Of a stretch of DNA of 53,769 bases, positions 1 to 24,146 are shown piece by piece. The notes under the pieces are model-generated. The model was not told the DNA's origin and made no database searches. It saw nothing but the letters and a program-made list of their open reading frames with translations. The stretch's first letter is position 1; every line of letters starts with the position of its first letter. The DNA lies in assembly GCA_025449695.1 (NCBI GenBank), contig JANWIW010000029.1, forward strand, positions 1 through 53,769. The letters run 5' to 3'. The stretch comes from Minisyncoccota bacterium (GTDB taxonomy: Bacteria > Patescibacteriota > Minisyncoccia > UBA6257 > 2-01-FULL-56-20). The position numbers and the translations under genes are program-made.

Positions 1-58
1 AGATCGCGAGAGGCGCGATCTACCAGCTCATTGATTCTCAATCGAAAGGAGGCCCGGT

Positions 59-112
59 TTGAAGATCAGGAACTATACCGCAGCGACCGGCGTCCTCGCT
101 ATCGGGCCCTAA
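59..112 (+). CDS. putative micro-ORF (17 aa, MKIRNYTAATGVLAIGP), output module of a cassette truncated by the window start
   Basis: AAAGGAGG at 45-52, TTG start 6 nt later, TAA directly before a terminator; same layout as units at 371 and 668. Confidence 0.35.
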   Translation: MKIRNYTAATGVLAIGP

Positions 113-118
113 AGGCCC

Positions 119-143
119 CGGGCGGCTCCAAGCCGCCCGTTTC
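119..143 (+). terminator. intrinsic terminator
   Basis: CGGGCGGCT-cca-AGCCGCCCG followed by TTT. Confidence 0.65.
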
Positions 144-151
144 CATTATTA

Positions 152-179
152 TTGACTAATTAAGAGGGTAGGATATGAT
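152..179 (+). promoter_or_regulatory. sigma70 promoter for leaderless Val leader
   Basis: TTGACT(152)-16 nt-TATGAT(174), ATG 6 nt downstream at 186. Confidence 0.7.
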
Positions 180-185
180 ATGCAT

Positions 186-254
186 ATGCATTTCGCCTCT
201 ACCGTTGCTGTGGTCGTCGTCGTCGTTAACTCCAGAACCCCCGGAGGCGCTTAG
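186..254 (+). CDS. Val-rich attenuation leader peptide MHFASTVAVVVVVVNSRTPGGA
   Basis: 7 Val codons in 8 positions; 3' end overlaps the antiterminator arm; not in the ORF track. Confidence 0.8.
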   Translation: MHFASTVAVVVVVVNSRTPGGA

Positions 255-306
255 CCGTTCGAAAAAAAGTCACCAAGCGCCTCCAATCCGGAGGCGTTTT
301 CGTTTC
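243..306 (+). promoter_or_regulatory. transcription attenuator (Val)
   Basis: AAGCGCCTCC(275-284) pairs either with GGAGGCGCTT(243-252, antiterminator) or with GGAGGCGTTT(290-299, terminator plus T tract). Confidence 0.8.
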
Positions 307-370
307 TTGCCTGATATGCCGCCCGTGCGGAAACCAGGCCGGAAACGGGGGTAGAGGGAGGCCTGGACCC

Positions 371-435
371 AGCTCGTTGAAAAGGAGGCGTCCTATGCGC
401 AAGGAATTCCACCGCGCCTATGGCGGCATGGGCGA
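371..435 (+). repeat. 65-bp exact direct repeat, copy 1 (boxA-like motif, SD, start of MRKEFHRAYGGMG ORF at 395)
   Basis: identical to 668-732. Confidence 0.95.
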
Positions 436-445
436 GGTCGAGAAC

Positions 446-476
446 GGGGCGGATCAATTCCGCCCCCTCATTTTTT
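446..476 (+). terminator. intrinsic terminator closing the Val unit
   Basis: GGGGCGGA-tcaat-TCCGCCCC then CTCATTTTTT. Confidence 0.7.
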
Positions 477-482
477 CCTTCA

Positions 483-511
483 TTGACACTCCGGCCGGCA
501 AGGCCTATCCT
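483..511 (+). promoter_or_regulatory. sigma70 promoter for leaderless Trp leader
   Basis: TTGACA(483)-17 nt-TATCCT(506), ATG 6 nt downstream at 518. Confidence 0.75.
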
Positions 512-517
512 TTGGAT

Positions 518-565
518 ATGGCACTGCATTGCTCCACGCGGTCCTGGTGGCGGAAAGGTTCCTAG
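518..565 (+). CDS. TrpL-like leader peptide MALHCSTRSWWRKGS
   Basis: tandem TGG TGG in a WWR context as in classical TrpL; followed by an attenuator. Confidence 0.85.
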   Translation: MALHCSTRSWWRKGS

Positions 566-620
566 CAACGGGAGGCCTTTCTGCGGTTTCTGACGAGGCT
601 TCCCGGCCTCGTTTTTGTTT
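550..620 (+). promoter_or_regulatory. transcription attenuator (Trp)
   Basis: 1:2 GCGGAAAGGTT/GGCCTTTCTGC; 2:3 CGGGAGGCCT(569-578)/AGGCTTCCCG(596-605); 3:4 ACGAGGCT/GGCCTCGT followed by TTTTGTTT. Confidence 0.85.
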
Positions 621-667
621 GAAATCCCGCCTCCGACGACTGGATTTCAGGCCGATACGGAGCCTGA

Positions 668-732
668 AGCTCGTTGAAAAGGAGGCGTCCTATGCGCAAG
701 GAATTCCACCGCGCCTATGGCGGCATGGGCGA
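668..732 (+). repeat. 65-bp exact direct repeat, copy 2
   Basis: identical to 371-435. Confidence 0.95.
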
Positions 733-748
733 TTGGATCATGATCTAG
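692..748 (+). CDS. putative micro-ORF (18 aa, MRKEFHRAYGGMGDWIMI), output of the Trp unit
   Basis: AAGGAGG 6 nt upstream; TAG abuts a terminator. Confidence 0.45.
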   Translation: MRKEFHRAYGGMGDWIMI

Positions 749-768
749 CGGGCCTCCGGCCCGCTTTT
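747..768 (+). terminator. intrinsic terminator closing the Trp unit
   Basis: AGCGGGCC-tcc-GGCCCGCT followed by TTT. Confidence 0.7.
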
Positions 769-771
769 CAT

Positions 772-799
772 TTGACATTCCCTATTACCCATGTAATAT
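772..799 (+). promoter_or_regulatory. sigma70 promoter for leaderless Leu leader
   Basis: TTGACA(772)-16 nt-TAATAT(794), ATG 6 nt downstream at 806. Confidence 0.7.
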
Positions 800-805
800 A
801 AAGGT

Positions 806-856
806 ATGTCCCGTACGCAATTAAATCTCCTCGCCCTTAGCCTCTTCAACCCTTAA
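806..856 (+). CDS. Leu-rich leader peptide MSRTQLNLLALSLFNP
   Basis: 5 Leu codons in 8 positions; same position relative to promoter and terminator as the Val and Trp leaders. Confidence 0.65.
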   Translation: MSRTQLNLLALSLFNP

Positions 857-888
857 CCCCACGGGAGGACGTTTTATGAGTAAAAAAC

Positions 889-912
889 AAAAGCCCCCGC
901 AAGGGGGCTTTT
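889..912 (+). terminator. attenuator terminator (Leu unit)
   Basis: AAAAGCCCCC-gcaa-GGGGGCTTTT; candidate antiterminator arm GGGAGGACGTTTT at 863-875 is weaker. Confidence 0.75.
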
Positions 913-1138
913 GCGGCTTGGATGCTGCACGGCTTGATAGGAAAGGTGTTCAGCATCCAGGCACTGCGCGAAAGCGCAAGGCCTGCGGTCGAAAGACCAA
1001 GCACATTGATTAGGAGGCCGTATGAACGGATATACCCGCCCATCTGGCGGCATCGCGCTCCTGCTCTAGGGCAAGGGCTCCCGGCGGGACAGGACAGGGG
1101 GTGATATCACCTCTGTTCTGCCCCGCCGATTTTTTTTG
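913..1138 (+). ncRNA. structured output RNA of the Leu unit (hairpins, boxA-like motif, SD, long terminator)
   Basis: TGGATGCTG/CAGCATCCA stem, TGCGC-GAAA-GCGCA and GGTC-GAAA-GACC GNRA hairpins, AGCACATTGA(1000), AGGAGG(1012), terminator 1082-1138 with T8. Confidence 0.5.
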
Positions 1139-1554: not shown

Positions 1555-2613
1555 ATGAACGACGACACCTTGCTTGCCAGACTCGAGCAGCTCGATTTCA
1601 ACGACGTACAAACCGCCCTGAACAGCGCCCGCCGCATCCTGGAAGAAGCCCCTCGCAGGTTTCCTCGCAAGATCGAACGGCCGCTCGTCCTGGTCGGGGG
1701 AGGGAGCGGGATCCCGACGGTCGCCCGCGCGGTACAGATGATCACCGACGAGCCGTTCGTCATGCTTGCCAACACCGGCGAGTTGCAGACGAAGGACGGC
1801 CGGCCGATGGGTGCGGGATACCTGCGGAAGGAGCTCGGGACTCTCGACTGGATCGACATCGTGAAGCAGTCGATCCACGGGACACCGCTCGCCGCCCGCG
1901 GCCCCTGGCACCGTTTCCTGGACGCGAAGCTCACTAAGGACGATCCCTACATGAGGACGGCCTACGTGCTCTTCGAAGCCGCGCGCCTCGAGTGGGGACT
2001 GCAGGACGCGATCGATTTCTGGAACGGGGTTATGGGCAACCGCTACCGCGTCCTCCCGTCCGTGGGGTCGCCCTGCGACCTGTTCTTCCAGGTTGGCGGG
2101 CAGCGGATGGACTTCAACGAGTACGCCTACCGCCCGCCCGGGTCCCAGATCGCGGATGACATGTTCATCGAGCCGATGATGACTCGGCTGGACGAGCTGG
2201 CGGCGGTGACCCTGCGCGACGCGCGCATGGCGATCGTCGGCCCCGGCGACGTCCACTTCTCGGTCCTGTTCCACTTCGCGGTTTCGGGCTTCCGGAAGGC
2301 GCTGGCCGAGGTTCCGAACCTCGTGCTCATCACCAACCTGACCGCCCGTCCCATCGATATCCCCGGCTTCAAGTTGTCGGACTTCCTGAGCCTCTACGAC
2401 CGCTGGCTGCCCTCGGGCAAGCCGGTGACCGTTCTGGTCCACAGGGGCCCGCTGACCGTCGAGGATCCGCTCACGGACGACGTCGACGGAGATGCCTATG
2501 GGCGCTTCACCCTCCGCCGCGCGCCGATGGCCAGCCAGAACATGAGCAACAACGGACAGTTGATCCATGATGAGTCGCTCCTGGCGGCGGCTCTCGCGCC
2601 GCTCCTCGCGTGA
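1555..2613 (+). CDS. CofD/YvcK(GlmR)-family protein, divergent
   Basis: VLVGGGSG N-terminal motif, IVGPGDxxxS motif, LITNL; GAGGAG RBS. Confidence 0.65.
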   Translation: MNDDTLLARLEQLDFNDVQTALNSARRILEEAPRRFPRKIERPLVLVGGGSGIPTVARAVQMITDEPFVMLANTGELQTKDGRPMGAGYLRKELGTLDWIDIVKQSIHGTPLAARGPWHRFLDAKLTKDDPYMRTAYVLFEAARLEWGLQDAIDFWNGVMGNRYRVLPSVGSPCDLFFQVGGQRMDFNEYAYRPPGSQIADDMFIEPMMTRLDELAAVTLRDARMAIVGPGDVHFSVLFHFAVSGFRKALAEVPNLVLITNLTARPIDIPGFKLSDFLSLYDRWLPSGKPVTVLVHRGPLTVEDPLTDDVDGDAYGRFTLRRAPMASQNMSNNGQLIHDESLLAAALAPLLA

Positions 2614-3500
2614 TGCAATGCAGATCGGCCTCCGGGTCCCAACCCCGGAGGCTACGCATTTACAGGGAAAAGGAAGACTGTTATTTTTACATGATGTTCG
2701 ACTCCCAGATGCTGCCGGCCGGTTTCACGTTCGAGACCGGATTCGGCGCTTTTAAGGAAAAATACAACCAGTTGAAGAGGCCGGAAGACGAGCCTTTCGA
2801 TTTTTTGCAGCGCATCGCGGATATCCTCCTCGCCGATTTCGGAGGCAAGGAAGATGGCGACCTTCTGCGATACCTTATTCATGCGTTCTATGTAGCCGGT
2901 ACCACCCAGGATATCCTGATCCATGAGGACCGCTCCAAAGACGACCTCAAGATCGGAGTGGCGACTGCTTTCCTCCACGACATAGGGTATCTCCTGATTC
3001 GCGACCGCTTTCAGAACATCTTCGATGATTTCCAGAAGAAAGAGATCCGCAAGGCCCATATGGCCGCGGGAGCGGAATATGCGCTGAAGATAATGGCCGA
3101 GCCTCCGCTCAGCGCCATGTTCGCGCCAGCCGAGCGCGAGCGCGCGGCGGGAATCATCGCCGTGCACGACCTTCCCTCCACCGCCCAGGACGACGGACGG
3201 AAAGGATTGCCTTTGGACCTCGCCGACGGTCTGCTCTATGCCCATCGAGAAGCGGACCGGCTTTGGATGACCGAAGAGTACGGGTTCGGAGACGATCTGA
3301 GGCGACTGCAAAAGAAAAAGGAAGGAACCACTCCGAAGGACCTCCTCGATCACGTTTTGAAAAGGTATCGGGAGGAAAAGACGCTCTACCCGGACGACGG
3401 AGGTTTCAAAGGAGACATGTTGTTCCGTACCGACAGGGGATACGGCATACTTTTGGAACAGCAAGACAAGCTGATGGCGAAATATGCCATCGAGCCGTGA
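2610..3500 (+). CDS. HD-domain phosphohydrolase (start uncertain)
   Basis: H...FLHDIGY...H...VHD...EADRL metal-ligand pattern. Confidence 0.7.
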   Translation: MMQCRSASGSQPRRLRIYREKEDCYFYMMFDSQMLPAGFTFETGFGAFKEKYNQLKRPEDEPFDFLQRIADILLADFGGKEDGDLLRYLIHAFYVAGTTQDILIHEDRSKDDLKIGVATAFLHDIGYLLIRDRFQNIFDDFQKKEIRKAHMAAGAEYALKIMAEPPLSAMFAPAERERAAGIIAVHDLPSTAQDDGRKGLPLDLADGLLYAHREADRLWMTEEYGFGDDLRRLQKKKEGTTPKDLLDHVLKRYREEKTLYPDDGGFKGDMLFRTDRGYGILLEQQDKLMAKYAIEP

Positions 3501-3565
3501 TAATGGGCTGAATGCCCGCATTTGGGGCTATAAACCCCGGAAAACAAGCATTTCAATGCCAAGAC

Positions 3566-3594
3566 TTGACGTAAAAAGAATAATTCATTAGAAT
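3566..3594 (+). promoter_or_regulatory. sigma70 promoter, leaderless start at 3601
   Basis: TTGACG-17 nt-TAGAAT, ATG 6 nt later. Confidence 0.7.
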
Positions 3595-3600
3595 GCGAGC

Positions 3601-3717
3601 ATGACGGCCTTATATGTCAATGGGTTGGAGCACGCGAGCCTTCTGATTTGGGGCCTCTTCGTCATGATTTACTTCGTATACCTTTTTGGGTATACAAGGA
3701 GAGGCGGTACGCCCTGA
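3601..3717 (+). CDS. 38-aa aromatic-rich peptide MTALYVNGLEHASLLIWGLFVMIYFVYLFGYTRRGGTP (leader peptide or small membrane protein)
   Basis: leaderless ORF behind a consensus promoter; followed by the hairpin CCCCTCT/AGAGGGG then GTTTT. Confidence 0.55.
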   Translation: MTALYVNGLEHASLLIWGLFVMIYFVYLFGYTRRGGTP

Positions 3718-3943
3718 GAAGACGGTCCAGCGATCTCAAGGTCCCCTCTCCAGTAAGAGGGGGTTTTGGGGGGTCTCGCGGGTTGAAGCATGGGAAGACA
3801 GCCTATGCTCCAGGCCGAGAAGGATCATTGAAAAGACGACCTGTGCCTGGAAGGTCGTGAACGCAAATAAGAAATCAACCATTAAATTCAGACCGGTTTC
3901 GCACTGGACTGAGTGCAGTGACCATAAGGGAGCGAGGAGGAGA

Positions 3944-4840
3944 ATGGCGATGAATGTCATTAAGCTGCATCTCGGAAAGGCACGGGCGGCGTTTCTCGGC
4001 CTCGATATCGGAGGCACGAAAACCGAATTGTGCGCTTTCACGGCCAGTCACCGGTTCATCGTTTCGCAGGCAATCTCCACGTCGGAGCTGCCTCGCGGTT
4101 CGTTGGATCTTGTGCCAGCCATCAGGGCCATCTTTCGCGAAAACCTCACGCCGACGGTGAAAAGGGTGGGAGTCGCGATGAGAGGCCTCGTGGTGGACGG
4201 CAATGTCGCCTACAGTTCGCTCTTGGGCGGTGAGGTGAACCAGCCTCTCGCGGGAAACCTCTCGCGCGAGCTCGGTCTTCCCGTAACCGTCAGGAACGAC
4301 GTGAGCGCGCAGGCCGTCGCCGAACTGCGATTCGGCGGCCGCGCGCCCGACGAGAGCATGCTTTTCGTGAATCTGGGAACGGGGCTTCGGCTCTCGTTCT
4401 TCGACCACGGCAGGCAGCTCGGCGGTAAGAAAGGCGGCGCGGGCGAAGTGTCGCTCGGATCGATCTTCATCCCGGAAGTGGCAGAAGGAAGCATCGCGCT
4501 TTCCGACTTGCTCTCCGGCAAAGGGATTTCGAACCTCCACCGGCTCTTGACCGGAGAGGTGATGGATCCCGCGGAGATCTTCCGGCGCGCGAAGCAGTCG
4601 TCACAGAGGGAAGTCGTAGAGGTGTTCTGCCGTGAGCTGGCAAGACTGCTGGCGCACGCGACCTTCTTCTACAACCCGCACGTGATCGTTCTTGGCGGTT
4701 CGTTGACGCTGAGCGCGGACGCGTACCTGTCCCGTGTTCGGGAGCTGTACTGCGCCCAGGTGATACCACTCCTCCAAGCCGAGGAGATCACGGTATCGCG
4801 CCTGGAGCATGGCGGCTGTCTCGGCGCGATCATCAAGTAG
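3944..4840 (+). CDS. ROK-family sugar kinase
   Basis: GLDIGGTK, NDVxAxAxAE, LGTG, GAGE motifs; GAGGAGG RBS places the start at 3944, not 3686. Confidence 0.85.
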   Translation: MAMNVIKLHLGKARAAFLGLDIGGTKTELCAFTASHRFIVSQAISTSELPRGSLDLVPAIRAIFRENLTPTVKRVGVAMRGLVVDGNVAYSSLLGGEVNQPLAGNLSRELGLPVTVRNDVSAQAVAELRFGGRAPDESMLFVNLGTGLRLSFFDHGRQLGGKKGGAGEVSLGSIFIPEVAEGSIALSDLLSGKGISNLHRLLTGEVMDPAEIFRRAKQSSQREVVEVFCRELARLLAHATFFYNPHVIVLGGSLTLSADAYLSRVRELYCAQVIPLLQAEEITVSRLEHGGCLGAIIK

Positions 4841-4937
4841 CGCCGGCGACACACCGACTCGATTATCAAAGAAGCCAGCCTGGCTTTGGCCCGGCTGAAC
4901 GGTATCCAACCCCAATCACGAAAGGTAGGACACGACG

Positions 4938-6497
4938 ATGGATATTATCCTGGACACCAACGCTCTCGGTGTTGTTTCGTCCGCTGAAGATCCGACGGAA
5001 GCCGCTCTGGCTCTCCTCGACACGAACGAGAGCCTGTGGAAGCTGGTCGCCGATCTGTCGAGGGCCATCCCGCTCACGGTCAACCCGGCGGTGGCGGCGG
5101 TTATGGAAGAACTGGGCGTGCGACTGAACGGACAGGCCACGGAAGGATTGCGGCTCAACAGCGAGCCGGAAATCCGCTCTTTCGCCTCTTCGCGCATCTA
5201 CGTCTATGGCACGGCAGTGGACAGCATCGGCGAAAACGCTCCGGCGGAGTGGCTTGTCGCGGGACACGAGGCTCCGAACAGTCAGGGGAGCTTCGCTCGT
5301 CTCGTGAAGGCCGACTACTACACCGACGGCGACGGCGCAATCGTGGAGGTGGACGGCGTGGAGACTTCCGTGGGCATGAGCCCGCGGTTCGCGCTCGATC
5401 TCATGAAGACGATCACCCGCGCCCTGGCCGGACCGAAAGGCCCGGTCATCGAGCTGCCCAGCCTGGACGGCGACGTCACGACCCTCGCCGCGGAGCTGGC
5501 CTTCTTCGATTCCCAGTTGAAATGGCGGCTCGACGGGTACACCGTTCCCGCGGGATCGGTGCCCGATGCGGTGTTGAGCATCCTCGTGAGTCACACCAAG
5601 GAGGGACTCCCGCCGCTGTCGGGCACGGAACGGACCCGGCTGACCAACATCATCGGCCAGTTCGTGAAATTGCGGAAGCCGGTGCCGGTCACGATCTCTT
5701 ACGCGATCGGCGTGAGGATCCCCAATCGCCTCAAGTTCTTCGAAGACGCGCAGGTGCCGACCCTCGCCTGGGTGCACACCGGTTGGTTCTTCAAACTGCT
5801 GAACGAGAAGGTGAAAAGGGTCTACGCGCCGGGCCTGCGCATCGTCGTCTTCGACGAGGCGACGCTCTTCGCATCCATGCTGCCGGGGTTCAGCCTCGAG
5901 GGTGTCGAGAAGTTTCTCGACATGACGCGGGAGCTCTTCCGCCGCATGGACACCCCGATCGAGATCATTCCGCTTTCCCGGGACCAGTTCCCGGAGAAAG
6001 AGGTGGGCAAGGTCAGCGTGCTTCCCGACAGGGAGCGGACGTACGCCATCCTTTGCTCTCTGCCGGAGATGCAGGACCCCGACATCATGCACGATCTCTA
6101 TCACAAGCGCGACCGCGATTACGACGCCGCGCGTCGCCTGGCCGGACCCCTCTGGGCGGTGGCCGAGCAGAACTCGGCCATCATTAGCCGCTATCTCACC
6201 TATCGCAAGAACGCGCGCCTCTTCAGCACGCTTCTCGGCGGCTCCGACTTCGTCGACGCCTGCGTCACGGAGAAGGAAGAGCGGATCGTCCTCGACATGA
6301 CCGCCAACGCGCTTCCCAATCACGGGATGCCGCTCGTCCGGCGGAACGTCGCGGGTGCCTACTCGATGAAGATCGTCCCCGAGTACCGCTTCACCGGCCG
6401 GAGGAACATGCATCCGGTTCGCATCGCCCTCAGCGAGTTCGGCATCGACTCGCCGGGCGAGATGACCTTCTACTACCGCGAGGAGAGCGTCGAGTAG
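4938..6497 (+). CDS. divergent isocyanide synthase (PvcA/Dit1/IsnA)-like protein with an unknown ~220-aa N-terminal region
   Basis: C-terminal half aligns by eye with its neighbour: KVKRVYAPGLRIVVFDE, LPNHGMPL. Confidence 0.55.
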   Translation: MDIILDTNALGVVSSAEDPTEAALALLDTNESLWKLVADLSRAIPLTVNPAVAAVMEELGVRLNGQATEGLRLNSEPEIRSFASSRIYVYGTAVDSIGENAPAEWLVAGHEAPNSQGSFARLVKADYYTDGDGAIVEVDGVETSVGMSPRFALDLMKTITRALAGPKGPVIELPSLDGDVTTLAAELAFFDSQLKWRLDGYTVPAGSVPDAVLSILVSHTKEGLPPLSGTERTRLTNIIGQFVKLRKPVPVTISYAIGVRIPNRLKFFEDAQVPTLAWVHTGWFFKLLNEKVKRVYAPGLRIVVFDEATLFASMLPGFSLEGVEKFLDMTRELFRRMDTPIEIIPLSRDQFPEKEVGKVSVLPDRERTYAILCSLPEMQDPDIMHDLYHKRDRDYDAARRLAGPLWAVAEQNSAIISRYLTYRKNARLFSTLLGGSDFVDACVTEKEERIVLDMTANALPNHGMPLVRRNVAGAYSMKIVPEYRFTGRRNMHPVRIALSEFGIDSPGEMTFYYREESVE

Positions 6498-6624
6498 GAA
6501 AGCAGTACGGCTCCAATGGTTGATCGTGGTTCGAATCATGTAATGCACAAGGGGGGCTGTCGGCGCTGTTCTATAACCGCCGGCGGCCCCTTCCTGTTTT
6601 CATAAAGGAATGTATAATTGCCGG

Positions 6625-7797
6625 ATGGGATCCAACGAACATAAAGATGCGTTGGCAGGCGGCGTGGAATCGAACAGGTACGTTTACCCGTACGTGCCTT
6701 TCGAGAACCTTGCCGACAAAGATGTGCGCAGCAATTTCAACGAGGCCCGCGAGGAGTCGTTCGAGACTATGCGGAGCCTCGTTTCGAAAGAGATCCTGCC
6801 GGATATTCCCCTGACTGGCGACGCGCCGAGCGAAAGGATATTGTCGCTTTTCGAAAACGAGCACGTGCGCTTCGGGCCCGTGAGCTTCATAGAGGACGAG
6901 CGCGATTCCTGGCTGGGGAAGATGAATCAGTTCGTCCGTGAGGACCAGCCTCTCCAGTTCGTCCTGCTCGGGTTCCCGTTCAAAATGGCCGTGCCCCTGA
7001 AGACCGACCGCGTTTTGCCGGACTTGGGCGAGATGTTGTCCCTGCGCAGGCTTGAAAACATCGCCGCCGAGATCAAAAAAACCTACCCGCCCGGCGGCGT
7101 GATCACCGTGTTCGGGGAGGGTGCCTTCGCGAAGACGGCCGGGGTGCCGGGAGCCGACGCCAACGCATACTTCCATTACCTCGAGGACCTTAATCGCCGA
7201 ATGGGGCTCGAGGGTACCGTGAACCTGAAGGAACTCTCCGGTATGGAAAGCATGGTGCCGGACTTTGAGGAGCGGTATGCCCGCAAGGTGGAAGAGCTGA
7301 AGGCACTCTATGGCGCGGGAGATCCCGGCTTCATGGAAAAGTACCAGGGCACCTATCCTTCCGTGTCCCGTTTGGTTTCCACGAAGGACGTGCCGGAAGG
7401 CATGCTCATGGACGTGTATAACGACGGCTTGCCGGACAGCGCGCTCAATAACGATGCACGAGCAGTACGGGAAGACATCAAGGCCCGCGCCCAAGAGGCC
7501 ACCTTCCTGTACCACGCCTACCTTGGCCTGCGTGATGACCTGAACTTTATAGACACCGAGGTGCCCCATGCTTTGCATCTGACTGTTTCTCCCAAGCCCG
7601 GCCGCCTGGGCGTCATTCCCGTGAACGAACACTCCGTCCGCTTGCCGTACCATGGGGTGCCGGTCCACGACCGTGCCGCGGACAGCTTCTCGATAGAGTA
7701 TCTCATCGACATAAAGCGGCGCCCGCGCAACTATACGCCGGTGCATCTCGAAGGGGACAAAGATAACAAGCCCTTCTACTACGCCGCAGAAGCTTAA
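6625..7797 (+). CDS. isocyanide synthase family protein (PvcA/Dit1/IsnA-like)
   Basis: FVLLGFPFK, LPDLGE, IKKTYPPG, LPYHGV match the family motifs PAFPxK, LPDxxE, YxPG, TPWH; TATAAT at 6613 supports a leaderless start at 6625. Confidence 0.8.
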   Translation: MGSNEHKDALAGGVESNRYVYPYVPFENLADKDVRSNFNEAREESFETMRSLVSKEILPDIPLTGDAPSERILSLFENEHVRFGPVSFIEDERDSWLGKMNQFVREDQPLQFVLLGFPFKMAVPLKTDRVLPDLGEMLSLRRLENIAAEIKKTYPPGGVITVFGEGAFAKTAGVPGADANAYFHYLEDLNRRMGLEGTVNLKELSGMESMVPDFEERYARKVEELKALYGAGDPGFMEKYQGTYPSVSRLVSTKDVPEGMLMDVYNDGLPDSALNNDARAVREDIKARAQEATFLYHAYLGLRDDLNFIDTEVPHALHLTVSPKPGRLGVIPVNEHSVRLPYHGVPVHDRAADSFSIEYLIDIKRRPRNYTPVHLEGDKDNKPFYYAAEA

Positions 7798-7817
7798 AAA
7801 TTTGGTTTGATAGCAAA

Positions 7818-7847
7818 AGGGACGGCGGCTGCCGTCCCTCTCGTTTT
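7818..7847. terminator. terminator between convergent genes
   Basis: AGGGACGGC-ggct-GCCGTCCCT flanked by A and T tracts. Confidence 0.7.
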
Positions 7848-7867
7848 GGTTGTCGTTCCCGATCGAA

Positions 7868-8284
7868 TCAGTCTCCCTCCCAAGAGAAGACTTCCCATTC
7901 GTGCTTCTCGCTGCCGAGTTGAATGGCGATCTTTCGACCGCCGAACGCGTCGCTCAGCTCCTCGGCCAGATGGCGGATCTCCAGCAGTTGTGCGCGGCCG
8001 TAGACCTCGAGCACCCAGGTTCTAGCCCGGGCAGCTTTCCAGCCGTGCATCCACAACTGGGCCACCACCTGCCGCCGTCTCGGGAAGATGCCGAACCACT
8101 TCCGGCGAGGGCCCCGCAAAAGTCCGAAAACGCCTTCCTCGCGCTCGAGCGCATCGAGGTTCTTCAGAGCTTCGCCGCTGACATTGGCTAGCGCATAGCC
8201 GAGCGTCAGCGAATCCGCGATGTATCGGGCTACATCCGCGGCTTTGACATGAGGATCGACCGTTTCGGTCACGTTCGCAAGCAT
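7868..8284 (-). CDS. hypothetical protein
   Basis: perfect TTGACA-17-TATAAT (8336-8308, minus strand) and AGGAGG RBS. Confidence 0.75.
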   Translation of the reverse strand: MLANVTETVDPHVKAADVARYIADSLTLGYALANVSGEALKNLDALEREEGVFGLLRGPRRKWFGIFPRRRQVVAQLWMHGWKAARARTWVLEVYGRAQLLEIRHLAEELSDAFGGRKIAIQLGSEKHEWEVFSWEGD

Positions 8285-8408
8285 ACCAGTCCTCCTAGAC
8301 TTATTTCATTATAAAATTAAGCAATATAAGTGTCAATACAATCGTAATGCGAACATCAAGCTGAGAGGCTGCAATTCTTGGGATTGTGCTAGACTTTAAG
8401 CACTTAAA

Positions 8409-11400
8409 ATGCTGATCCTGCCTTTTCAAAAGCTCAAGGCTCAAGATGCGGATATAGCCGGTGGAAAAGGGGCTTCGCTCGGCGAGATGACCCAGGCGGG
8501 CATCCCCGTGCCGCCCGGTTTCGTGGTCCTTTCGGGCGCCTTTGACGGGTTCATTGATGAGACGCACCTGAACGCGGAGATCGAAGCGGCCCTCGATCTT
8601 GTGAACCACGAAGAGATGCATACCGTGGAAAACGCTTCAAAGAGGATCCAGGCCCTGATTCACAATGCCGGGATGCCCCCGGACATCGGCAAAGCGATCC
8701 TCGGCCAATTCAAGGAATTGGACGCCAAGTTCGTGGCAGTCCGTTCCAGCGCCACTTCCGAGGATAGCGCCGACGCGGCCTGGGCGGGGCAGTTGGACAC
8801 CTATCTCAATACCACCGAGGACCAGCTCCTGGAGAACGTGAAGCGCTGCTGGGCCTCGCTCTTTACGCCCCGCGCCATCTTCTATCGCTTCGAGAAAGGA
8901 TTGCACCATACGAAGATCTCGGTGGCGGTCGTGGTGCAAAATATGGTCGAAAGCGAGGTTTCCGGCATCGCCTTTTCCGTCCATCCGGTCACCCAGGACT
9001 ACAACCAGATGATCATCGAGGCCGGTCTCGGCCTCGGCGAGGCGATCGTGTCGGGCTCCATTACGCCCGACAGCTACGTGGTCGAGAAGGAGCCGTTCCG
9101 GATCCTCGACAAGAACGTATCGGTGCAGGAGAAAGCTATGGTGCGCGGAGCCGAGGGAGGCAGTATATGGCGGGAAGTGGAGAAAGAACGGGGCGAGAAG
9201 CAAGCTCTCTCCGACCAGCGGATCCTTGAGCTGGCCAGTGTGATCCTGCGCATCGAAAGGCATTACGGCTTTCCTTGTGATATCGAGTGGGCGCTCGAAG
9301 GCGGGAAGTTTTACATCACCCAAAGCCGCCCGATAACGACGCTTTTTAAGAAAGAGAACGGCCACGGATCCATCGAAGAGGCCCCGCGCTGGGAGAAGGT
9401 CCTCCAGCGCAATTTCCCGCCGTTTGCCTGGACCGCGAGCGGCCATTACGAGTTCAATGGCCTGAGCATCGGCCCGATGAAGTGGAAACGGGACCGGGAG
9501 ATGCACATCCGTTACAAATCGCAACAGTCCTACATGATCCAGGACCCGGCCGCCTATTATATCTCGAACATCAATGACGTCATCAGGGAGATCAATCCGT
9601 TATTTGAGGAAAAAATGGATGAATATAACGGCGAGATCCACGAGGCCGTCCGTAAAGAACCGGGCAAAACTCTTAAGGACTTGGCTGAATTGGTGGATTT
9701 GCATAGATGGATGTACGGCCTCATGCTCGTGGGTTTTGATGTCGCAATCGACATCAGGAACCGGATCGACGAGGTCGTAAAGGAAAGGGGTCCGGAATTC
9801 GAATCCTATCTTTTGACGCCCTGGAAGCAAACGGCCATCGGAAGGGAGACGGCGGGGATCGCGGAAGCGAAAGAAGCCGCAAAGAAGAACTCTGATGTCC
9901 GCGTTGCGGTCACGGAGAAGCTCTCCGCCGATTTCGGCTATCTTCACCAGGACTATCTCGGCCAATCCTGGTCGCCCGGGGATTATGAGCAGGCCCTTAA
10001 GGACCCCGCGCTGCAGTCGCATATGGATGATGCCCATGATATCAGCCGCCTGGACCCGTACGAGCAGTGGCTCATCACGATCTTCAAGAAGGTGATCTAC
10101 ATGTACGAGGAAGGCCGCAATGCCATGGTCCGCTGCATGTGGGCGATCAAGGAAACCGCGAAGGCCCTTGGGACGGACCCCGACGCCCTCCTTTATATGA
10201 CCGATAAGGAAGTGGCGGCATTCGCGTCCGGCAAGGGAAGCATGATCCCTCCCGATCTGCTCGGAAAGCGCAAAGAAGCATTTGCCCTTTATTTTGAGAA
10301 TGGCTCGTATCGGGAGTACACCGGCGAGGAAGAAGTAAAACAGCTGATACTGGATCAGGACATAATGCGCTTCTGGGAGGATAAAGCCGGTAACGAGGAT
10401 TCTCTGGAAGGCTCCATCGCTTTTAAAGGACACGTTAAGGGCAAAGCGCGTCTCGTCTTCACCCAGGCGGACGCGAACGCGGTAGAGCAAGGAGAGATCA
10501 TCGTTACTCCCATGACGCAGGTCGAGTTCTTATCCGGCATCCGCAAATGCGCCGCGATCGTGACCGATGAGGGCGGGATCATCTCCCACGCGGCCATCGT
10601 CGCCAGGGAATTCGGCAAGCCCTGCATCCTCAATACACGCAAGGCGACCAAAGTGTTCAGGAACGGCGACCTCATCGAGGTGGACGCCAACCTGGGCGTG
10701 GTGAAAAGGCTAGCACTGGCTGAAAATGAAGGCTTTTCCTTTGTGAACAGGGACTGGAAGAAGAACTGGGCTGGCGGCTGGGCGGCGCTCAGCTCCGCAT
10801 ATCTCGCCTATCAATACACGAAGCAGCTGAAAGACGTGCTGGGCGTCTGCCTGGAAGAGGCCCTCTTGATCAGCCACGGCAGCCTTACCGCTTGTTATTT
10901 CATCGACGCACATAAAAAGAAGTTCGGAACGCACTTCGCCGGCCAGGCGATCAAAGACCCGGGGGCGGTTTCAGCATGGGCCGCAACGCTCAAAGAAAAG
11001 ACCAATGCAGCCCGTTCCCTTATCGAGGCATATCTCAAGGAGGATTTTTCTCCGGAGCGGTTCGGCAGTTTCTTGGAGGCGATATACGCCTATGGCGTGC
11101 CGCATCGGATCGTGAAGGTCACCGTCGACTACCTGCCGGCGGATATTCTGGACCGGTCCCTGGACACGCTTGCCGAAGCCCGGGTGTATGCGGAGCCGGT
11201 GTACGAGGAAATGGAGAAATACTACCGGCACATCGCCGGCAAGATCGGCGACCGGCATGGGCTGGAACCGGAATTGGTCCTTGCGATGAACCGGACTCAA
11301 TTCGAGGACTATCTGAAGGCCGGCATTCTGCCTTCCACTCCAGTCTTAAAGGAACAATGCGGGAACTCCGCGTTCTATGTGAGCGGCGGCAGCGAGCTCG

Positions 11401-11783
11401 CATTCTCCGGAGAAAAAGACGTAACGGAGATCGAGCGGCTGCTGTCAGATCGCGGGGAAACCAAGGAATTGTCGGGGCAGACCGCGTATCCCGGCAAGGC
11501 CAGGGGAAGCGTCAGGATCGTCCTCGATCCCTCGAAGGTCACCGATTTCAGGGACGGCGAGATCCTCGTGACCGGCATGACCCGGCCGGAATACCTGTCG
11601 CTGGTCCAGCGGTCGGCAGGTTTCATCACCGATGCGGGCGGCATCCTGTCCCACGCGGCCATCACCGCCCGCGAATTGAAGAAGCCCTGCGTCATCGGAA
11701 CCGAGTCCGCGACCAGGGTGCTGAAAAACGGCGACCTGGTTGAAATCGATGCGGATAGGGGCTTAATCAGGATCATTTCGTAG
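8409..11783 (+). CDS. dikinase-like protein: PPDK/PEPS ATP-grasp domain plus two tandem [unknown domain + swivelling His domain] modules; no pyruvate-binding barrel
   Basis: GGKGASLGEM, VAVRSSATSED, GLGEAIVSG, DIEW, QSRPITT; GGIISHAAIVARE and GGILSHAAITARE. Confidence 0.85.
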   Translation: MLILPFQKLKAQDADIAGGKGASLGEMTQAGIPVPPGFVVLSGAFDGFIDETHLNAEIEAALDLVNHEEMHTVENASKRIQALIHNAGMPPDIGKAILGQFKELDAKFVAVRSSATSEDSADAAWAGQLDTYLNTTEDQLLENVKRCWASLFTPRAIFYRFEKGLHHTKISVAVVVQNMVESEVSGIAFSVHPVTQDYNQMIIEAGLGLGEAIVSGSITPDSYVVEKEPFRILDKNVSVQEKAMVRGAEGGSIWREVEKERGEKQALSDQRILELASVILRIERHYGFPCDIEWALEGGKFYITQSRPITTLFKKENGHGSIEEAPRWEKVLQRNFPPFAWTASGHYEFNGLSIGPMKWKRDREMHIRYKSQQSYMIQDPAAYYISNINDVIREINPLFEEKMDEYNGEIHEAVRKEPGKTLKDLAELVDLHRWMYGLMLVGFDVAIDIRNRIDEVVKERGPEFESYLLTPWKQTAIGRETAGIAEAKEAAKKNSDVRVAVTEKLSADFGYLHQDYLGQSWSPGDYEQALKDPALQSHMDDAHDISRLDPYEQWLITIFKKVIYMYEEGRNAMVRCMWAIKETAKALGTDPDALLYMTDKEVAAFASGKGSMIPPDLLGKRKEAFALYFENGSYREYTGEEEVKQLILDQDIMRFWEDKAGNEDSLEGSIAFKGHVKGKARLVFTQADANAVEQGEIIVTPMTQVEFLSGIRKCAAIVTDEGGIISHAAIVAREFGKPCILNTRKATKVFRNGDLIEVDANLGVVKRLALAENEGFSFVNRDWKKNWAGGWAALSSAYLAYQYTKQLKDVLGVCLEEALLISHGSLTACYFIDAHKKKFGTHFAGQAIKDPGAVSAWAATLKEKTNAARSLIEAYLKEDFSPERFGSFLEAIYAYGVPHRIVKVTVDYLPADILDRSLDTLAEARVYAEPVYEEMEKYYRHIAGKIGDRHGLEPELVLAMNRTQFEDYLKAGILPSTPVLKEQCGNSAFYVSGGSELAFSGEKDVTEIERLLSDRGETKELSGQTAYPGKARGSVRIVLDPSKVTDFRDGEILVTGMTRPEYLSLVQRSAGFITDAGGILSHAAITARELKKPCVIGTESATRVLKNGDLVEIDADRGLIRIIS

Positions 11784-11876
11784 AGGGTTCATGATGCGAC
11801 TCATGGTATCCAGAATGGTATGATGGTGAAGATTGACGTAATGGAAAGCAAAGTGACCATTTTGGAATAAGCCCAC

Positions 11877-12755
11877 ATGGAAATACGAAGCCATAATTCG
11901 GAACCGAGCTCTGAAAATCCTCCAGAAAACCTGCAGGCTGATTACATCCGCCACAGCAAATCGACTTATGCCACCTATCGCAAATTGGGTGCGGGGGAGA
12001 ACCCTGCCCAGGCATTCGACCCGGAAGATCAGGTTCTCCCGGACCTTTCCCCGGAAGGCCGGGAGCTTGCGAGAGGGGAGGCCGAAAAGTTTTTTGCAGG
12101 GCTTGATCCGGCGAAAGATGCCCTGTTCTTCGTGTCCAGTAACGAAGCGAGAGCCTTGGAGACCGCCGCGCTATATCGCGACATCGCTAAGGTAAAGAAC
12201 TTCGATATAGTTAAGCCGGAAAATGCCAGAAGCTCCATCTCGGAGAACCATATCGATGGAGATGTCCGGGTGATACGGGCGCTGTCTTTGAATCTCAAAA
12301 ACACGGTTATCCTCAACCTGTTCAACCCACCCGCTTCTCGCTACCCTGTAAACTTTGAAGGATTAAACCGTGAGGATGTCGAGATGTATAAGGGATTGGA
12401 ACGGGCCATCGACGCGGATAATAAAGGCTCTTTTGCGGCGAACTTCTTGCAGTACGGAGATTTGGTGAAAACGTATGTGCCTGGCTTCGAAACGGCCGAG
12501 GATCTTTATAATCGCAACTTCAAGCACCTGATCAGACTTCTCAGGTTCGCTGAAACGAAACGGCCGACTGGAGAGCAAGAGAAACCAATCAGGATTGTAG
12601 CCTTCGGTCATGAAAACCAAGTGCTCGTCGCCCTCAATAAATATTTTGAGGAACAGGGTATCAATAACTGCGAAGTTCTCCATGTCGAGCTGTCTCCTGA
12701 GGGCAAGGTTAGTGGTAGTTTCCGTGACAAAACGGTAGATGACATTGCTGCTTAG
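11877..12755 (+). CDS. histidine phosphatase superfamily protein, divergent
   Basis: YIRHS, LSPEG, SSxxxRALET, GHE. Confidence 0.65.
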   Translation: MEIRSHNSEPSSENPPENLQADYIRHSKSTYATYRKLGAGENPAQAFDPEDQVLPDLSPEGRELARGEAEKFFAGLDPAKDALFFVSSNEARALETAALYRDIAKVKNFDIVKPENARSSISENHIDGDVRVIRALSLNLKNTVILNLFNPPASRYPVNFEGLNREDVEMYKGLERAIDADNKGSFAANFLQYGDLVKTYVPGFETAEDLYNRNFKHLIRLLRFAETKRPTGEQEKPIRIVAFGHENQVLVALNKYFEEQGINNCEVLHVELSPEGKVSGSFRDKTVDDIAA

Positions 12756-12776
12756 TGTTAATAAGTGGATGTCTAC

Positions 12777-13865
12777 ATGACCCTACAACCAGAAAAATAC
12801 AGAGGTCTCTTCAAGATGAGGGGTCGCCTCACATGCTTACACAGCGATTTTTTCGTTCATGGTTCGTTGGGGTTCGGCAACGCCTTGGTAATCTGCAAGG
12901 GCGATGACTGGCGTTCTTTCATGTCTATTGAAGGAGAAAAGCGCTGTCTTCAGAAAGGCTTAGAAGTATTTTCGGATGAGATTGCATATCAACAGTATAG
13001 TCAAGGTTTCAGAAAGTATATTGAGACAGCTAAAGAGAAGATCATTCCACGCTTTAAAAATGAGCAAGAAAACATCACTTGGGAAGAACTCAACGAAATA
13101 TTATCTTTCCTTGGAAAGTTTTGGCATTTTTATGGCATGACCGAATTTTCATACCACGACCTTGCATATGAAAAATCTTTAGAAACAAATAACAGCGTAC
13201 TTAAGAGCAACCTGGATGATTTGGGTAAATTGAAATTCAGTGGAAGAGAATTAATGAATGCATATCTATTCGAAGGAGGTGTCTTCCATGCATTGCTTCT
13301 TAACGTGGGAAACCGATTTCTGAAAGATCCAAGCGATGCATCTTTTCTCTTCAAGCACGAAATTAAAGAGCTATTCGAAGGAGTCGCTATTTCTGGGGAA
13401 GAACTGAAGAAACGCAGGCAGGTCTACGGCTGTGCCGTCACGGAAGGTGCAACGGAGTTTTTTACCTACGAGAAGAGCGTAAGCGTGTGGGACGATTTTT
13501 GCGGTGCTCAGGCCGGTCCGCGATCGATCAGCGGGACCGTGGCAAGCCGTGGCATCGCTTCCGGGCGGGTCGTTATAGCTCCTATGCTGGTGGATATGAA
13601 AGAGATATTGAAGATCGACTCGGAGATGCAGCAAGGGGACATCCTGGTCGCGGAAAGCACGACCCCCGATCTTATGATGCTTTGCAAGAAGGCTGCAGCC
13701 ATAATTACCGATCAGGGAGGTATGCTGTCGCACGCGGCTATTATCAGCCGGGAATTGGGGATACCCTGCATCATTGGTACCGGTAAAGCGACCCACATCC
13801 TGAAAAACGGTGACCTGGTTGAAATCGATGCGGATAGGGGTAAGATTACGATACTAAGCAAATAG
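12777..13865 (+). CDS. stand-alone [unknown domain + PEP-utilising swivelling His domain] protein
   Basis: GDILVAESTTPD, TDQGGMLSHAAIISRELGIP; no ATP-grasp domain. Confidence 0.8.
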   Translation: MTLQPEKYRGLFKMRGRLTCLHSDFFVHGSLGFGNALVICKGDDWRSFMSIEGEKRCLQKGLEVFSDEIAYQQYSQGFRKYIETAKEKIIPRFKNEQENITWEELNEILSFLGKFWHFYGMTEFSYHDLAYEKSLETNNSVLKSNLDDLGKLKFSGRELMNAYLFEGGVFHALLLNVGNRFLKDPSDASFLFKHEIKELFEGVAISGEELKKRRQVYGCAVTEGATEFFTYEKSVSVWDDFCGAQAGPRSISGTVASRGIASGRVVIAPMLVDMKEILKIDSEMQQGDILVAESTTPDLMMLCKKAAAIITDQGGMLSHAAIISRELGIPCIIGTGKATHILKNGDLVEIDADRGKITILSK

Positions 13866-13868
13866 CAA

Positions 13869-14960
13869 ATGGGAGAATACTCACCAAGCATTGAGGCGGA
13901 AAAGCCATATAGTTCCAGGATCGAGCTTCACTTCTTCCGGCATTCCATCAAGGAAAGCGATGTCGTGAGCGAAACCGACCATGGAGTAAGGACATCAAGG
14001 GAGGGCAAGCGGCTGCTGAAGCAGGATACCTTCAGTAACGTGAACCTCGACCAGGCGGTCGCCTTTGGCAGCCCGCGAGACCGTGCCCAGGAGGCGGCAG
14101 GGTTCATGATGGCCGGCCATAGGGATGACATCACCGAAGACGATACGCTGGAGAGCCTAAAGGAGAAGCTCGATGCCGAACTTAAATACGGCTCGAAGAT
14201 CGGCGTCGATCACCGCCTCGATTTCCATGAGAGCAGGACCGGAAGCCCGGTAGCAAGGATGCTCTACGCGGCGATGGATCGCGGCGAGTACGCGAAAGCC
14301 ATAATCGAAGATAGCGACAAGATGGCCGAGGAAATCGGCGATGCGTCGGGAGCCAACTATTCCTTCAAGGCCGCAGGAATCGCGAGTGTCATCGAAAAGT
14401 ACATGAAGGTCGCCCCGAGATGGGACCAACTAGTGGCAGAAAAGAGCGGCCAATATACCGATACCCTCGAACGATATTTCGGCACCCATCAGGGCATGAG
14501 CGAGTCATTCCTTGCGAAGGTTATTGAAAAGACACAGGGCCTTGAGAGCAGGGCCAGGTTCATCGAGGCGTTCAGCAAGCAGGGATTTGATTTCAACAAA
14601 GGATTCGGCATGGAGATCCTTACGGGACCGCATGGAGAGCAGGCGTTGAAGATCAATATGATCATAGAAGGGAAAGATGATGTTCCGGGACATGTTCTTG
14701 ATCAGGAAGTTTCGGCTGCGACCATCAGGGAGATCATTCAGGAGGGAACCGAAGGACAGCGGCGGCTCATGGGCATGGCGTTGAGGCGCAGGCGCGAGGA
14801 GGGAGCGGTCGCGGAAAGCACCGTCGCCGAGAGGGCAAACCTTTCCGTGGAGCAGATCCAAGCCATGGAGAGCGGCGAATACCCCGACGTCCCGGACTAT
14901 GTCCGGGTCGTCGAGGCCATGGGATATCCCGCCGCCGATTTCGCCAGGTTCAAACCCTGA
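13869..14960 (+). CDS. histidine phosphatase superfamily protein with a C-terminal XRE-type HTH
   Basis: FFRHS, SPRDRAQE, THQG; C-terminal LRRRREE...VAERANLSVEQIQAMESG. Confidence 0.65.
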   Translation: MGEYSPSIEAEKPYSSRIELHFFRHSIKESDVVSETDHGVRTSREGKRLLKQDTFSNVNLDQAVAFGSPRDRAQEAAGFMMAGHRDDITEDDTLESLKEKLDAELKYGSKIGVDHRLDFHESRTGSPVARMLYAAMDRGEYAKAIIEDSDKMAEEIGDASGANYSFKAAGIASVIEKYMKVAPRWDQLVAEKSGQYTDTLERYFGTHQGMSESFLAKVIEKTQGLESRARFIEAFSKQGFDFNKGFGMEILTGPHGEQALKINMIIEGKDDVPGHVLDQEVSAATIREIIQEGTEGQRRLMGMALRRRREEGAVAESTVAERANLSVEQIQAMESGEYPDVPDYVRVVEAMGYPAADFARFKP

Positions 14961-20271: not shown

Positions 20272-20368
20272 AACTTACAGCTTATAGCTTACAGCTTGCA
20301 GTTACAAATGACTCGCTTGCTGGCTTCGACTGCGCAAAGTAGTGCCGTTCAGAAAACCAAGTTTGTCG

Positions 20369-20451: not shown

Positions 20452-20639
20452 AGCCTGGATCCCGCATCCCGCCGGAGGCGAGGCCCGCTCTTGGCGAGGT
20501 TCATCTTCGGCGACTCACCCTTGGCGAAGCCGTGCTAAAGGGCGGCAAGGCCGGGACGACAAGCTCCGGGCAACGCTCGCGTGACATTGACGATTTATAT
20601 AAAATAATATATAATGATGCAAGAAGGAGGGTTCTGACC

Positions 20640-24113: not shown

Positions 24114-24145
24114 CAACTAACAACTAACAACTAAGAACTAAGAAC
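24108..24145. repeat. heptamer tandem repeat (CAACTAA)n
   Basis: directly visible between grpE and dnaK. Confidence 0.85.
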
Positions 24146-24146
24146 C

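Follow-up and report, generated by a model that had tools for sequence, protein, structure and literature searches.

Positions 1 to 1137 of the stretch analyzed here hold a tandem array of small units, all on the plus strand and with no long gene among them. The stretch, called the window below, covers positions 1 to 53,769 of contig JANWIW010000029.1 (GenBank assembly GCA_025449695.1) from a Minisyncoccota bacterium. It opens contig C29 in a genome of 983,527 bases in 37 contigs, estimated to be 92.7% complete; the genomes of its relatives measure 0.5 to 1.3 Mb. By its rRNA traits, the host is of the Parcubacteria type, without an anti-Shine-Dalgarno (anti-SD) sequence. Each unit runs from a promoter through a leaderless leader peptide, a terminator with its predicted antiterminator (T1 for the terminator), a structured spacer, an AGGAGG sequence, and a paralogous micro-open reading frame (micro-ORF) to a second terminator (T2). 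An earlier note on this DNA had described an output module built around the motif AGCWCRTTGA. That module is the downstream half of each of these self-contained units, and its motifs (25, 371, 668, and 1000), AGGAGG sequences (47, 383, 680, and 1012), start codons (59, 395, 692, and 1022), and micro-ORFs lie where the note had placed them. The features of the array are as follows, with the method in parentheses.

1 to 21, plus strand, 8-bp hairpin before the motif of unit 0, a unit cut by the contig start (folding, -12 kcal/mol, z -1.8)
25 to 34, plus strand, unit 0 motif AGCTCATTGA (pattern search)
47 to 52, plus strand, unit 0 AGGAGG, 6 nt before TTG (pattern search)
59 to 112, plus strand, unit 0 micro-ORF, (M)KIRNYTAATGVLAIGP and stop, start TTG at 59 (translation)
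119 to 139, plus strand, unit 0 T2, 6 nt past the stop (terminator scan)
152 to 179, plus strand, Val promoter TTGACT-16-TATGAT, 6 nt before the ATG at 186 (promoter scan)
186 to 254, plus strand, Val leader, leaderless, MHFASTVAVVVVVVNSRTPGGA and stop (translation, genome-wide scan)
275 to 299, plus strand, Val attenuator terminator T1 (terminator scan, folding)
241 to 252 pairing with 275 to 284, plus strand, Val antiterminator (folding)
371 to 380, plus strand, unit 1 motif AGCTCGTTGA (pattern search)
383 to 388, plus strand, unit 1 AGGAGG, 6 nt before the ATG at 395 (pattern search)
395 to 565, plus strand, unit 1 micro-ORF, MRKEFHRAYGGMGEV..., open through T2 to the stop of the Trp leader (translation)
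446 to 466, plus strand, unit 1 T2, inside the open frame (terminator scan)
483 to 511, plus strand, Trp promoter TTGACA-17-TATCCT, 6 nt before the ATG at 518 (promoter scan)
518 to 565, plus strand, Trp leader, leaderless, MALHCSTRSWWRKGS and stop (translation, genome-wide scan)
592 to 613, plus strand, Trp attenuator terminator T1 (terminator scan, folding)
628 to 634, plus strand, CGCCTCC, pairing with GGAGGCG (682 to 688) in the minimum-energy fold of unit 2 (folding)
646 to 668, plus strand, unit 2 hairpin abutting the motif (folding)
668 to 677, plus strand, unit 2 motif AGCTCGTTGA (pattern search)
680 to 685, plus strand, unit 2 AGGAGG, 6 nt before the ATG at 692 (pattern search)
692 to 748, plus strand, unit 2 micro-ORF, MRKEFHRAYGGMGDWIMI and stop (translation)
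747 to 765, plus strand, unit 2 T2, overlapping the stop codon (terminator scan)
772 to 799, plus strand, Leu promoter TTGACA-16-TAATAT, 6 nt before the ATG at 806 (promoter scan)
806 to 856, plus strand, Leu leader, leaderless, MSRTQLNLLALSLFNP and stop (genome-wide scan)
887 to 914, plus strand, Leu attenuator terminator T1, bidirectional type (terminator scan, folding)
920 to 1002, plus strand, unit 3 spacer with three hairpins (z -5.9), the last being GGTCGAAAGACC at 987 to 998 (folding)
1000 to 1009, plus strand, unit 3 motif AGCACATTGA (pattern search)
1012 to 1017, plus strand, unit 3 AGGAGG, 4 nt before the ATG at 1022 (pattern search)
1022 to 1069, plus strand, unit 3 micro-ORF, MNGYTRPSGGIALLL and stop (translation)
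1082 to 1137, plus strand, unit 3 T2, a long stem followed by 8 T (sequence, folding)

The total comes to at least five units: Phe (on contig C23), unit 0 (whose leader is cut off), Val (unit 1), Trp (unit 2), and Leu (unit 3). The four units counted in the earlier note are indeed found within 1.07 kb; the fifth, the Phe unit, occupies positions 442 to 68 of C23 on the minus strand. After its leader come a strong hairpin, a structured spacer, AGGAGG, 6 nt, an ATG opening MTRFRNRSFGGTGRF and a stop, a terminator, and then a further promoter with 6 nt to another ATG, whose peptide (MELHVIV...) leaves the contig end. This peptide probably represents the leader that unit 0 lacks. Neither reads nor contig ends yielded a link joining C23 to C29. 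A genome scan for AGGAGG, a short ORF, and a terminator revealed no other units, and contig ends held none. Because the four copies in the window are paralogs, two of which (units 1 and 2) share an identical 66-nt stretch (371 to 436 and 668 to 733), they represent three independent observations rather than four.

With these corrections, the array is real and non-random. Over 1.7 kb, eight terminator-like sites were found against 2.1 expected, along with four promoter-like sites of the sigma-70 type against 0.9 expected. The degenerate motif AGCWCRTTGA has 18 copies on both strands of the genome, 4 of them in the 1.07-kb array, for which the other 14 copies predict about 0.01. The composite of motif, AGGAGG, and start codon matches four times in the genome, always in the array, and never in 60 relatives.

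To find comparable leaders, the whole genome was scanned for -35 and -10 boxes followed after 3 to 12 nt by an ATG and an ORF of 8 to 35 amino acids. Only five matches were obtained: four are the unit leaders, and the fifth is the 23S rRNA promoter. The four leaders, including that of the Phe unit on the minus strand of C23 (MNSARFFFFSFSDEPLSRKVFLAD), are short ORFs with clustered codons of one amino acid (FFFFSF, VAVVVVVV, WW, and LNLLALSL), and all have a 6-nt spacer from the -10 box to the ATG. Leaderless starts are the norm in this host, with -10-like hexamers at 142 of 932 long-ORF starts compared to 257 of 11,210 internal ATGs and a spacer peak at 6 to 8 nt. Folding of the Val unit gives a clean terminator (275 to 299) versus an antiterminator alternative (241 to 252 with 275 to 284), and the Trp unit folds into a 1:2/3:4 layout; in the Leu unit, the alternative helix is weak. 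Judged from its sequence, the upstream half of each unit is probably a classical ribosome-mediated attenuator. An Rfam search of positions 1 to 1700 at an E value of 10 or below returned 32 matches, none at the gathering score. The best leader families scored 20.8 bits against a threshold of 50 (Leu_leader) and 19.3 bits against 55 (Phe_leader), and the Leu_leader match and one of two Phe_leader matches fall on the wrong strand. In the Leu unit (861 to 1013), a GGGAGG 7 nt before an ATG also opens a 45-codon ORF (MSKKQKPPQGG...) just past the leader stop; this ORF crosses the first terminator, and its TAG stop (1011 to 1013) overlaps AGGAGG.

No genes for the synthesis or supply of the sensed amino acid stand under attenuator control, and the micro-ORF alone follows. 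Searches of the 92.7%-complete genome for Trp_syntA, ILVD_EDD, and Iso_dh (TrpA-, IlvD-, and LeuB-type proteins) found none, while the same searches matched 14 of 14 control genomes. Therefore, no biosynthetic operon appears to be left for these attenuators to control.

The micro-ORFs, at 15 to 18 codons, are the sole cistrons under each attenuator. In all five, AGGAGG lies 4 to 6 nt before the start (spacers of 6, 6, 6, 4, and 6 nt) and the frame is ungapped. They share a basic N terminus and an (R)-x-x-G-G/V core, with CGC-N6-GGCGG encoding R-x-x-G-G, from which unit 0 departs. In frame, the fourth peptide reads MNGYTRPSGGIALLL and stop; the MNGYTRH... sequence and the one-base shift given for it in the earlier note stem from a mistranslation. 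The distance from stop codon to T2 stem is 6, -2, and 12 nt in units 0, 2, and 3 and 6 nt on C23, and the unit 1 ORF passes through T2, so that T2 is near enough to be affected by a translating ribosome. The Val micro-ORF (395 to 565) crosses the next promoter in frame and ends at the stop of the Trp leader. Toward their C termini, the peptides tend to carry the amino acid of their own leader: the tail has three F in the Phe unit, ...GDWIMI in the Trp unit, ...IALLL in the Leu unit, ...GEV... in the Val unit, and ...GVLAIGP in unit 0 (leader MELHVIV). Cognate residues number 3 of 14 (F), 1 of 26 (V), 1 of 17 (W), and 3 of 14 (L). Relative to proteome frequencies, this enrichment has a combined Fisher p of 0.043, and the true pairing of leaders with ORFs ranks first among 24 permutations. 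Taken together as sequence features, the variability, the unit-specific codons, the conserved initiation region, and the adjoining terminator look more like those of a regulatory leader-type ORF than like those of an effector peptide. The family of peptides of about 17 amino acids suggested in the earlier note is compatible with the five paralogous ORFs; conservation at the DNA and peptide levels cannot be separated, because the residues between the conserved blocks vary freely.

Taken together, we read the array, with moderate confidence, as a set of orphan, amino-acid-specific leader-peptide attenuators, each gating a paralogous micro-ORF that would probably serve a second ribosome-sensing role. 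As its sequence indicates, a sigma-70-type promoter would start each transcript at the AUG of a leader rich in one amino acid (Phe, and likewise Val, Trp, or Leu). A ribosome stalled on the cognate codons would then favor the antiterminator over T1, as suggested by the alternative folds of the Val and Trp units and, by extension, for Leu and Phe. RNA polymerase would read on through the spacer, AGGAGG, and the 15- to 18-codon micro-ORF, which we take to be translated, to T2. In the last and weakest step, the micro-ORF would probably act as a second ribosome-sensing checkpoint on a starvation RNA of about 300 nt, besides or instead of encoding an effector peptide. This role is proposed because the micro-ORF tail tends to carry the leader's own amino acid and abuts T2.

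Several observations weigh against this interpretation. In the Phe unit, the first hairpin lacks a U-run and was not called on the coding strand by the terminator scan, and the Val micro-ORF has no stop before T2. The cognate-residue signal is modest, post hoc, and carried by Phe, Leu, and Trp (P = 0.86 for Val alone). The peptides are no better conserved than the underlying DNA and thus do not demonstrate coding selection. The 16S rRNA lacks CCUCC, and SD 5-mers show no enrichment at starts (91 of 932, compared to 936 of 11,210 at internal ATGs). Finally, no homologue was found, confining the support for selection to five paralogs in one metagenome-assembled genome (MAG).

We treat the units as autonomous because beyond T2 lies only the next promoter, and read-through would meet an internal, probably untranslated leader and stop by default at its T1; the in-frame fusion of the Val micro-ORF to the Trp leader is the one exception. 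No regulated gene follows a T2: after it comes the promoter of the next unit or, after the last T2 with its long stem and 8 T, a dispersed repeat and then the independent promoter of an operon headed by a CofD/YvcK-like gene. The repeat (1210 to 1320, also 1343 to 1392) is hairpin forming and resembles a miniature inverted-repeat transposable element; it has copies on C4, C8, C23, C25, and C30 and shorter matches in the relatives G017, G035, G011, and G005. All units point toward the operon (promoter at 1408 to 1436, gene at 1555 to 2613), which raises the alternative that the array is its composite, multi-promoter leader, with T1 and T2 read through, perhaps by boxA-dependent processive antitermination, on any amino acid shortage. 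That the micro-ORF stops come within 0 to 12 nt of T2, where a ribosome could occlude it, would fit such a leader, as would the in-frame fusion of the Val micro-ORF to the Trp leader and the presence of a NusB gene. However, on a continuous transcript the downstream leader AUGs would be internal, 58 to 76 nt past the preceding stop, and would go untranslated, and the default fold ends the RNA at the next T1. The last T2, followed by the repeat and a strong, independent promoter, argues in the same direction, as do the absence of such an array from the only relative found of the CofD-like gene and the dissimilarity of the motif to the boxA of the genome's own rrn leaders. We consider this alternative distinctly improbable.

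The AGGAGG sequences are found in a genome whose 16S rRNA 3' tail reads GGATCA-ATTAAAC (C4:20198-20238, minus strand) rather than ending in CCTCC. All 11 matched 16S ends, from this genome and nine relatives, read GGATCA-ATTAAA (41 genomes searched, 31 without a match). Loss of the anti-SD has been published for a subgroup of the Parcubacteria (Tsurumaki et al. 2022, PMC9297842). Since the anti-SD is absent and SD 5-mers are not enriched at starts, what the earlier note called a strong SD is not an ordinary ribosome-binding site, and translation of an internal, AGGAGG-led ORF is not assured. At the same time, GGAGG at a spacer of 4 to 7 nt occurs at 20.4 per 1,000 starts compared to 7.2 per 1,000 controls, a 2.8-fold difference. 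By hand count, AGGAGG precedes 17 listed starts, 14 of them at 4 to 9 nt. At an aldose-epimerase-like gene at 20640 (region 20610 to 20642), this genome and two other genera of the family retain AGGAGG or AAGGAG 6 to 9 nt ahead of a common MWL.N start. Such patterns hint that AGGAGG may work in this family despite the missing anti-SD and that SD-like motifs may have an anti-SD-independent role. The complementarity between CATTGATT (units 0 and 3) and GGATCAAT prompted the idea that the SD region pairs with the new 16S tail, but it was rejected: tail-complementary 5-mers number 79 near starts and 78 far from them. The 16S gene itself (C4, about 21230 to 20300, minus strand) carries an insertion near its 3' end with an ORF resembling LAGLIDADG-type homing endonucleases, and the 16S and 23S genes lie on separate contigs, each with its own promoter. 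Elsewhere in the window, tandem heptamer repeats directly precede start codons, of the AACTAAC type before dnaK (24100 to 24146) and of the GTAAGCT type before cysS (20272 to 20310, minus strand).

A host ribosome lacking an anti-SD to read AGGAGG also leaves room for the read-through RNA itself to be the effector. In such a starvation-induced riboregulator, AGCWCRUUGA, AGGAGG, and CGC-N6-GGCGG would bind protein or RNA, and the ORF would be incidental or tune stability or the 3' end. The conserved positions are nucleotide blocks, between which residues vary freely, and trans-acting attenuator RNAs are known, for instance, rnTrpL of Sinorhizobium meliloti (PMC7968998). However, the gap from motif to AGGAGG is 12 nt in unit 0 versus 2 nt in the other motif-bearing units, and the Phe unit has GGTATCCCAATGGTA ahead of AGGAGG in place of the motif; with this differing spacing and the missing motif, the units have no common contiguous RNA seed. 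A search of the genome did not find CsrA, the protein most expected to bind GGA, and the idea of the array as a CsrA sponge was discarded. We likewise rejected the idea that each output pairs over a long range with the leader of its own unit, as the cross-unit duplex matrix has no diagonal dominance. Moreover, all five units preserve the start codon, the frame, and the length of the ORF, none of which an untranslated RNA would require. In our view, a riboregulator of this kind is unlikely.

The earlier note had interpreted the hairpin and AGCWCRTTGA as a boxB-boxA-like loading site for NusB and S10, or AGGAGG as a decoy titrating anti-SD-bearing ribosomes, either of which would throttle rRNA synthesis or translation on starvation. 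Some resemblance exists: as in rrn leaders with boxA, a hairpin is followed by a motif containing GCTC...TTGA, and NusB is encoded in the genome. The hairpin is clear in units 0 (1 to 21), 2 (646 to 668), and 3 (987 to 998), three of the four units for which it had been claimed; the unit 1 stem (334 to 366) is outside the minimum-energy fold (z +1.3). The note had also suggested a comparison with the genome's own rrn leaders, listing an unlike motif first among the findings that would speak against its reading, and unlike is what the motif turned out to be. The 16S leader has a promoter and a hairpin followed by CTTTCTTTGAAAAAC, and the 23S leader has GGTCTTTTCGTAA. By hand count, the motif matches the 16S-leader element at 9 of 14 positions in units 1 and 2, which share TTGAAAA with it, but at only 6 in unit 0 and 5 in unit 3, and the match is limited to TTGA(AAA). 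The U-run of both rrn leaders is replaced in the array by C-R-T-T. In further contrast to an rrn boxA, the motif is not in every unit (the Phe unit lacks it), and within about 100 nt comes a terminator (66 to 85 nt past the motif in all four copies), leaving no long operon to antiterminate. The decoy version is undercut because the organism's 16S lacks CCUCC, and its own ribosomes therefore cannot be titrated through an anti-SD. We regard both versions as very improbable. From its sequence, AGCWCRTTGA is better described as a conserved block in the 5' untranslated region of four of the five paralogs, just upstream of the initiation region; its identity as an rrn-type boxA is not supported.

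A search for TTYTTTGAAAA in 30 relatives did not define a lineage-wide boxA, the pattern being too common. AGCWCRTTGA was also tried as a -35 box and dropped, as no -10 box lies at the right distance. The U-rich tails past two T1s, GTTTTTGTTTGAAATC in the Trp unit (605 to 627) and GGGCTCTTTTGCGG in the Phe unit (C23, about 262 to 245, minus strand), resemble the rrn leader elements more than AGCWCRTTGA does; they may simply be terminator U-tracts.

Homologues of the module were sought by DNA, motif pattern, ORF-core pattern, and synteny of either flanking gene, and none were found. The searches covered the 60 relatives and, with different queries, 400 genomes each of the order, class, and phylum; the loci covered were 1 from a metagenome, 8 from genome contigs (of which the best one was read), and 80 from viruses. 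BLAST of positions 1 to 1500 against the 60 relatives matched only the 1210 to 1320 repeat and terminator-like fragments, and the sole match to the motif region (G001:C6:15416) was dismissed because it falls within coding sequence on the opposite strand. Across 400 genomes of the order, AGGAGG-4..6-DTG-12..21-CGC-N6-GGCGG gave 7 single matches versus 8 for the control, none a look-alike. The ORF-core pattern with ATG matched at least 117 stretches in viral contigs, and none of the 80 loci screened was alike. A leaderless Phe-run pattern did not outperform its control when searched in 400 genomes of the class; 10 of 30 loci examined held short in-frame ORFs, which were set aside because they looked like antisense or coding noise. 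Parts of the window are contained in seven public soil DNA runs, with no RNA run among those listed. Contigs from four soil runs were short, low in depth, and identical, with no variants and no extension past position 1. A literature search for leader-peptide attenuation in Patescibacteria found nothing.

The genes around the array (C23:492-2891 and positions 1555 to 14960 of the window) include those for a PepT-like M20 peptidase, a 416-amino-acid protein, the CofD/YvcK-like protein, an HD protein, a ROK kinase, a 519-amino-acid protein, a DIT1/PvcA-like protein, and two PEP-synthase-like proteins. The PepT-like gene is absent from the 60 relatives, and the best of eight PepT-like loci (a Patescibacteria MAG, 49% identity) has no array downstream. 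Neither the 60 relatives nor 400 genomes of the phylum yielded the CofD-like gene, and no array lies upstream of its single metagenome relative (53% identity). Since the relatives searched lack these and other flanking genes, we place the array in an accessory region.

An array known from one genome and embedded in such an island could be a neutral or decaying by-product of tandem duplication, with most copies lacking a present function. The 66 identical nt of units 1 and 2, pointing to recent duplication or gene conversion, the Val copy without a stop, and the Phe-unit hairpin without a U-run are in line with this. Yet four amino acid specificities have diverged while promoter, 6-nt spacing, terminators, AGGAGG, and start were kept, which is hard to explain without selection on each unit. 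We deem a mere by-product improbable.

Returning to the attenuator interpretation, it invites a broader scenario, offered tentatively and with low confidence. An obligate amino acid scavenger, unable to make Phe, Val, Trp, or Leu, may have turned biosynthetic attenuators into stand-alone hunger sensors. Each shortage would release an RNA of about 300 nt and/or a peptide of 15 to 18 amino acids with the missing residue spelled out in its tail. As a group, the units would form an OR-gated signal running parallel to RelA (a RelA/SpoT protein is encoded) and read through AGGAGG without an anti-SD.

In the enterobacterial trp, phe, leu, and ilv attenuators, ribosome stalling at hungry codons leads to read-through. 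Like these, the array units have a short ORF rich in one amino acid. The intrinsic terminator behind it competes with an antiterminator clearly in the Val unit and also in the Trp unit; the Leu alternative is weak, and the Phe hairpin has no U-run. The units differ in that their leaders are leaderless, with the -10 box exactly 6 nt from the AUG, and in that at least five units stand in tandem. They also differ in lacking a biosynthetic operon, only the micro-ORF and T2 following, in a host in which the pathway genes searched for were not found. Leader-peptide attenuation is textbook knowledge and, to our knowledge, always a throttle on a biosynthetic or supply operon. The novelty here is the tandem of at least five attenuator units, each predicted to control only a mini-gene, and not the attenuation itself. 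If active, these units would be the first stand-alone amino acid sensors of such a kind and a handle on how ultra-small symbiotic bacteria perceive host supply.

Three further systems bear on the array. As in the mycobacterial polycysteine leaderless ORFs (bioRxiv 10.1101/834739), a 5' leaderless short ORF would sense one amino acid and control what lies downstream. The mycobacterial ORFs control operonic genes of the matching pathway, whereas the array would control micro-ORFs and sense Phe, Val, Trp, or Leu, and it is built in tandem with intrinsic terminators. In S. meliloti, the attenuator RNA rnTrpL and the tiny peptide peTrpL act in trans (PMC7968998, PMC7298713), a precedent for an attenuator unit as effector that resembles the array in concept, not in sequence. 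There, the effectors are the terminated short RNA and the leader peptide, and a trp gene follows; in the array, it is the read-through portion that would act as effector, with no structural gene behind it. Finally, the genome and nine relatives conform to the Parcubacteria without an anti-SD (PMC9297842) in their GGATCA-ATTAAA tails, SD-poor starts, and often leaderless genes. Genes that keep AGGAGG at SD spacing, here the five micro-ORFs and about 14 others, are not described in the passages of that report consulted here. A perfect AGGAGG before each mini-gene, in a lineage without an anti-SD, makes an anti-SD-independent role of SD-like sequences testable.

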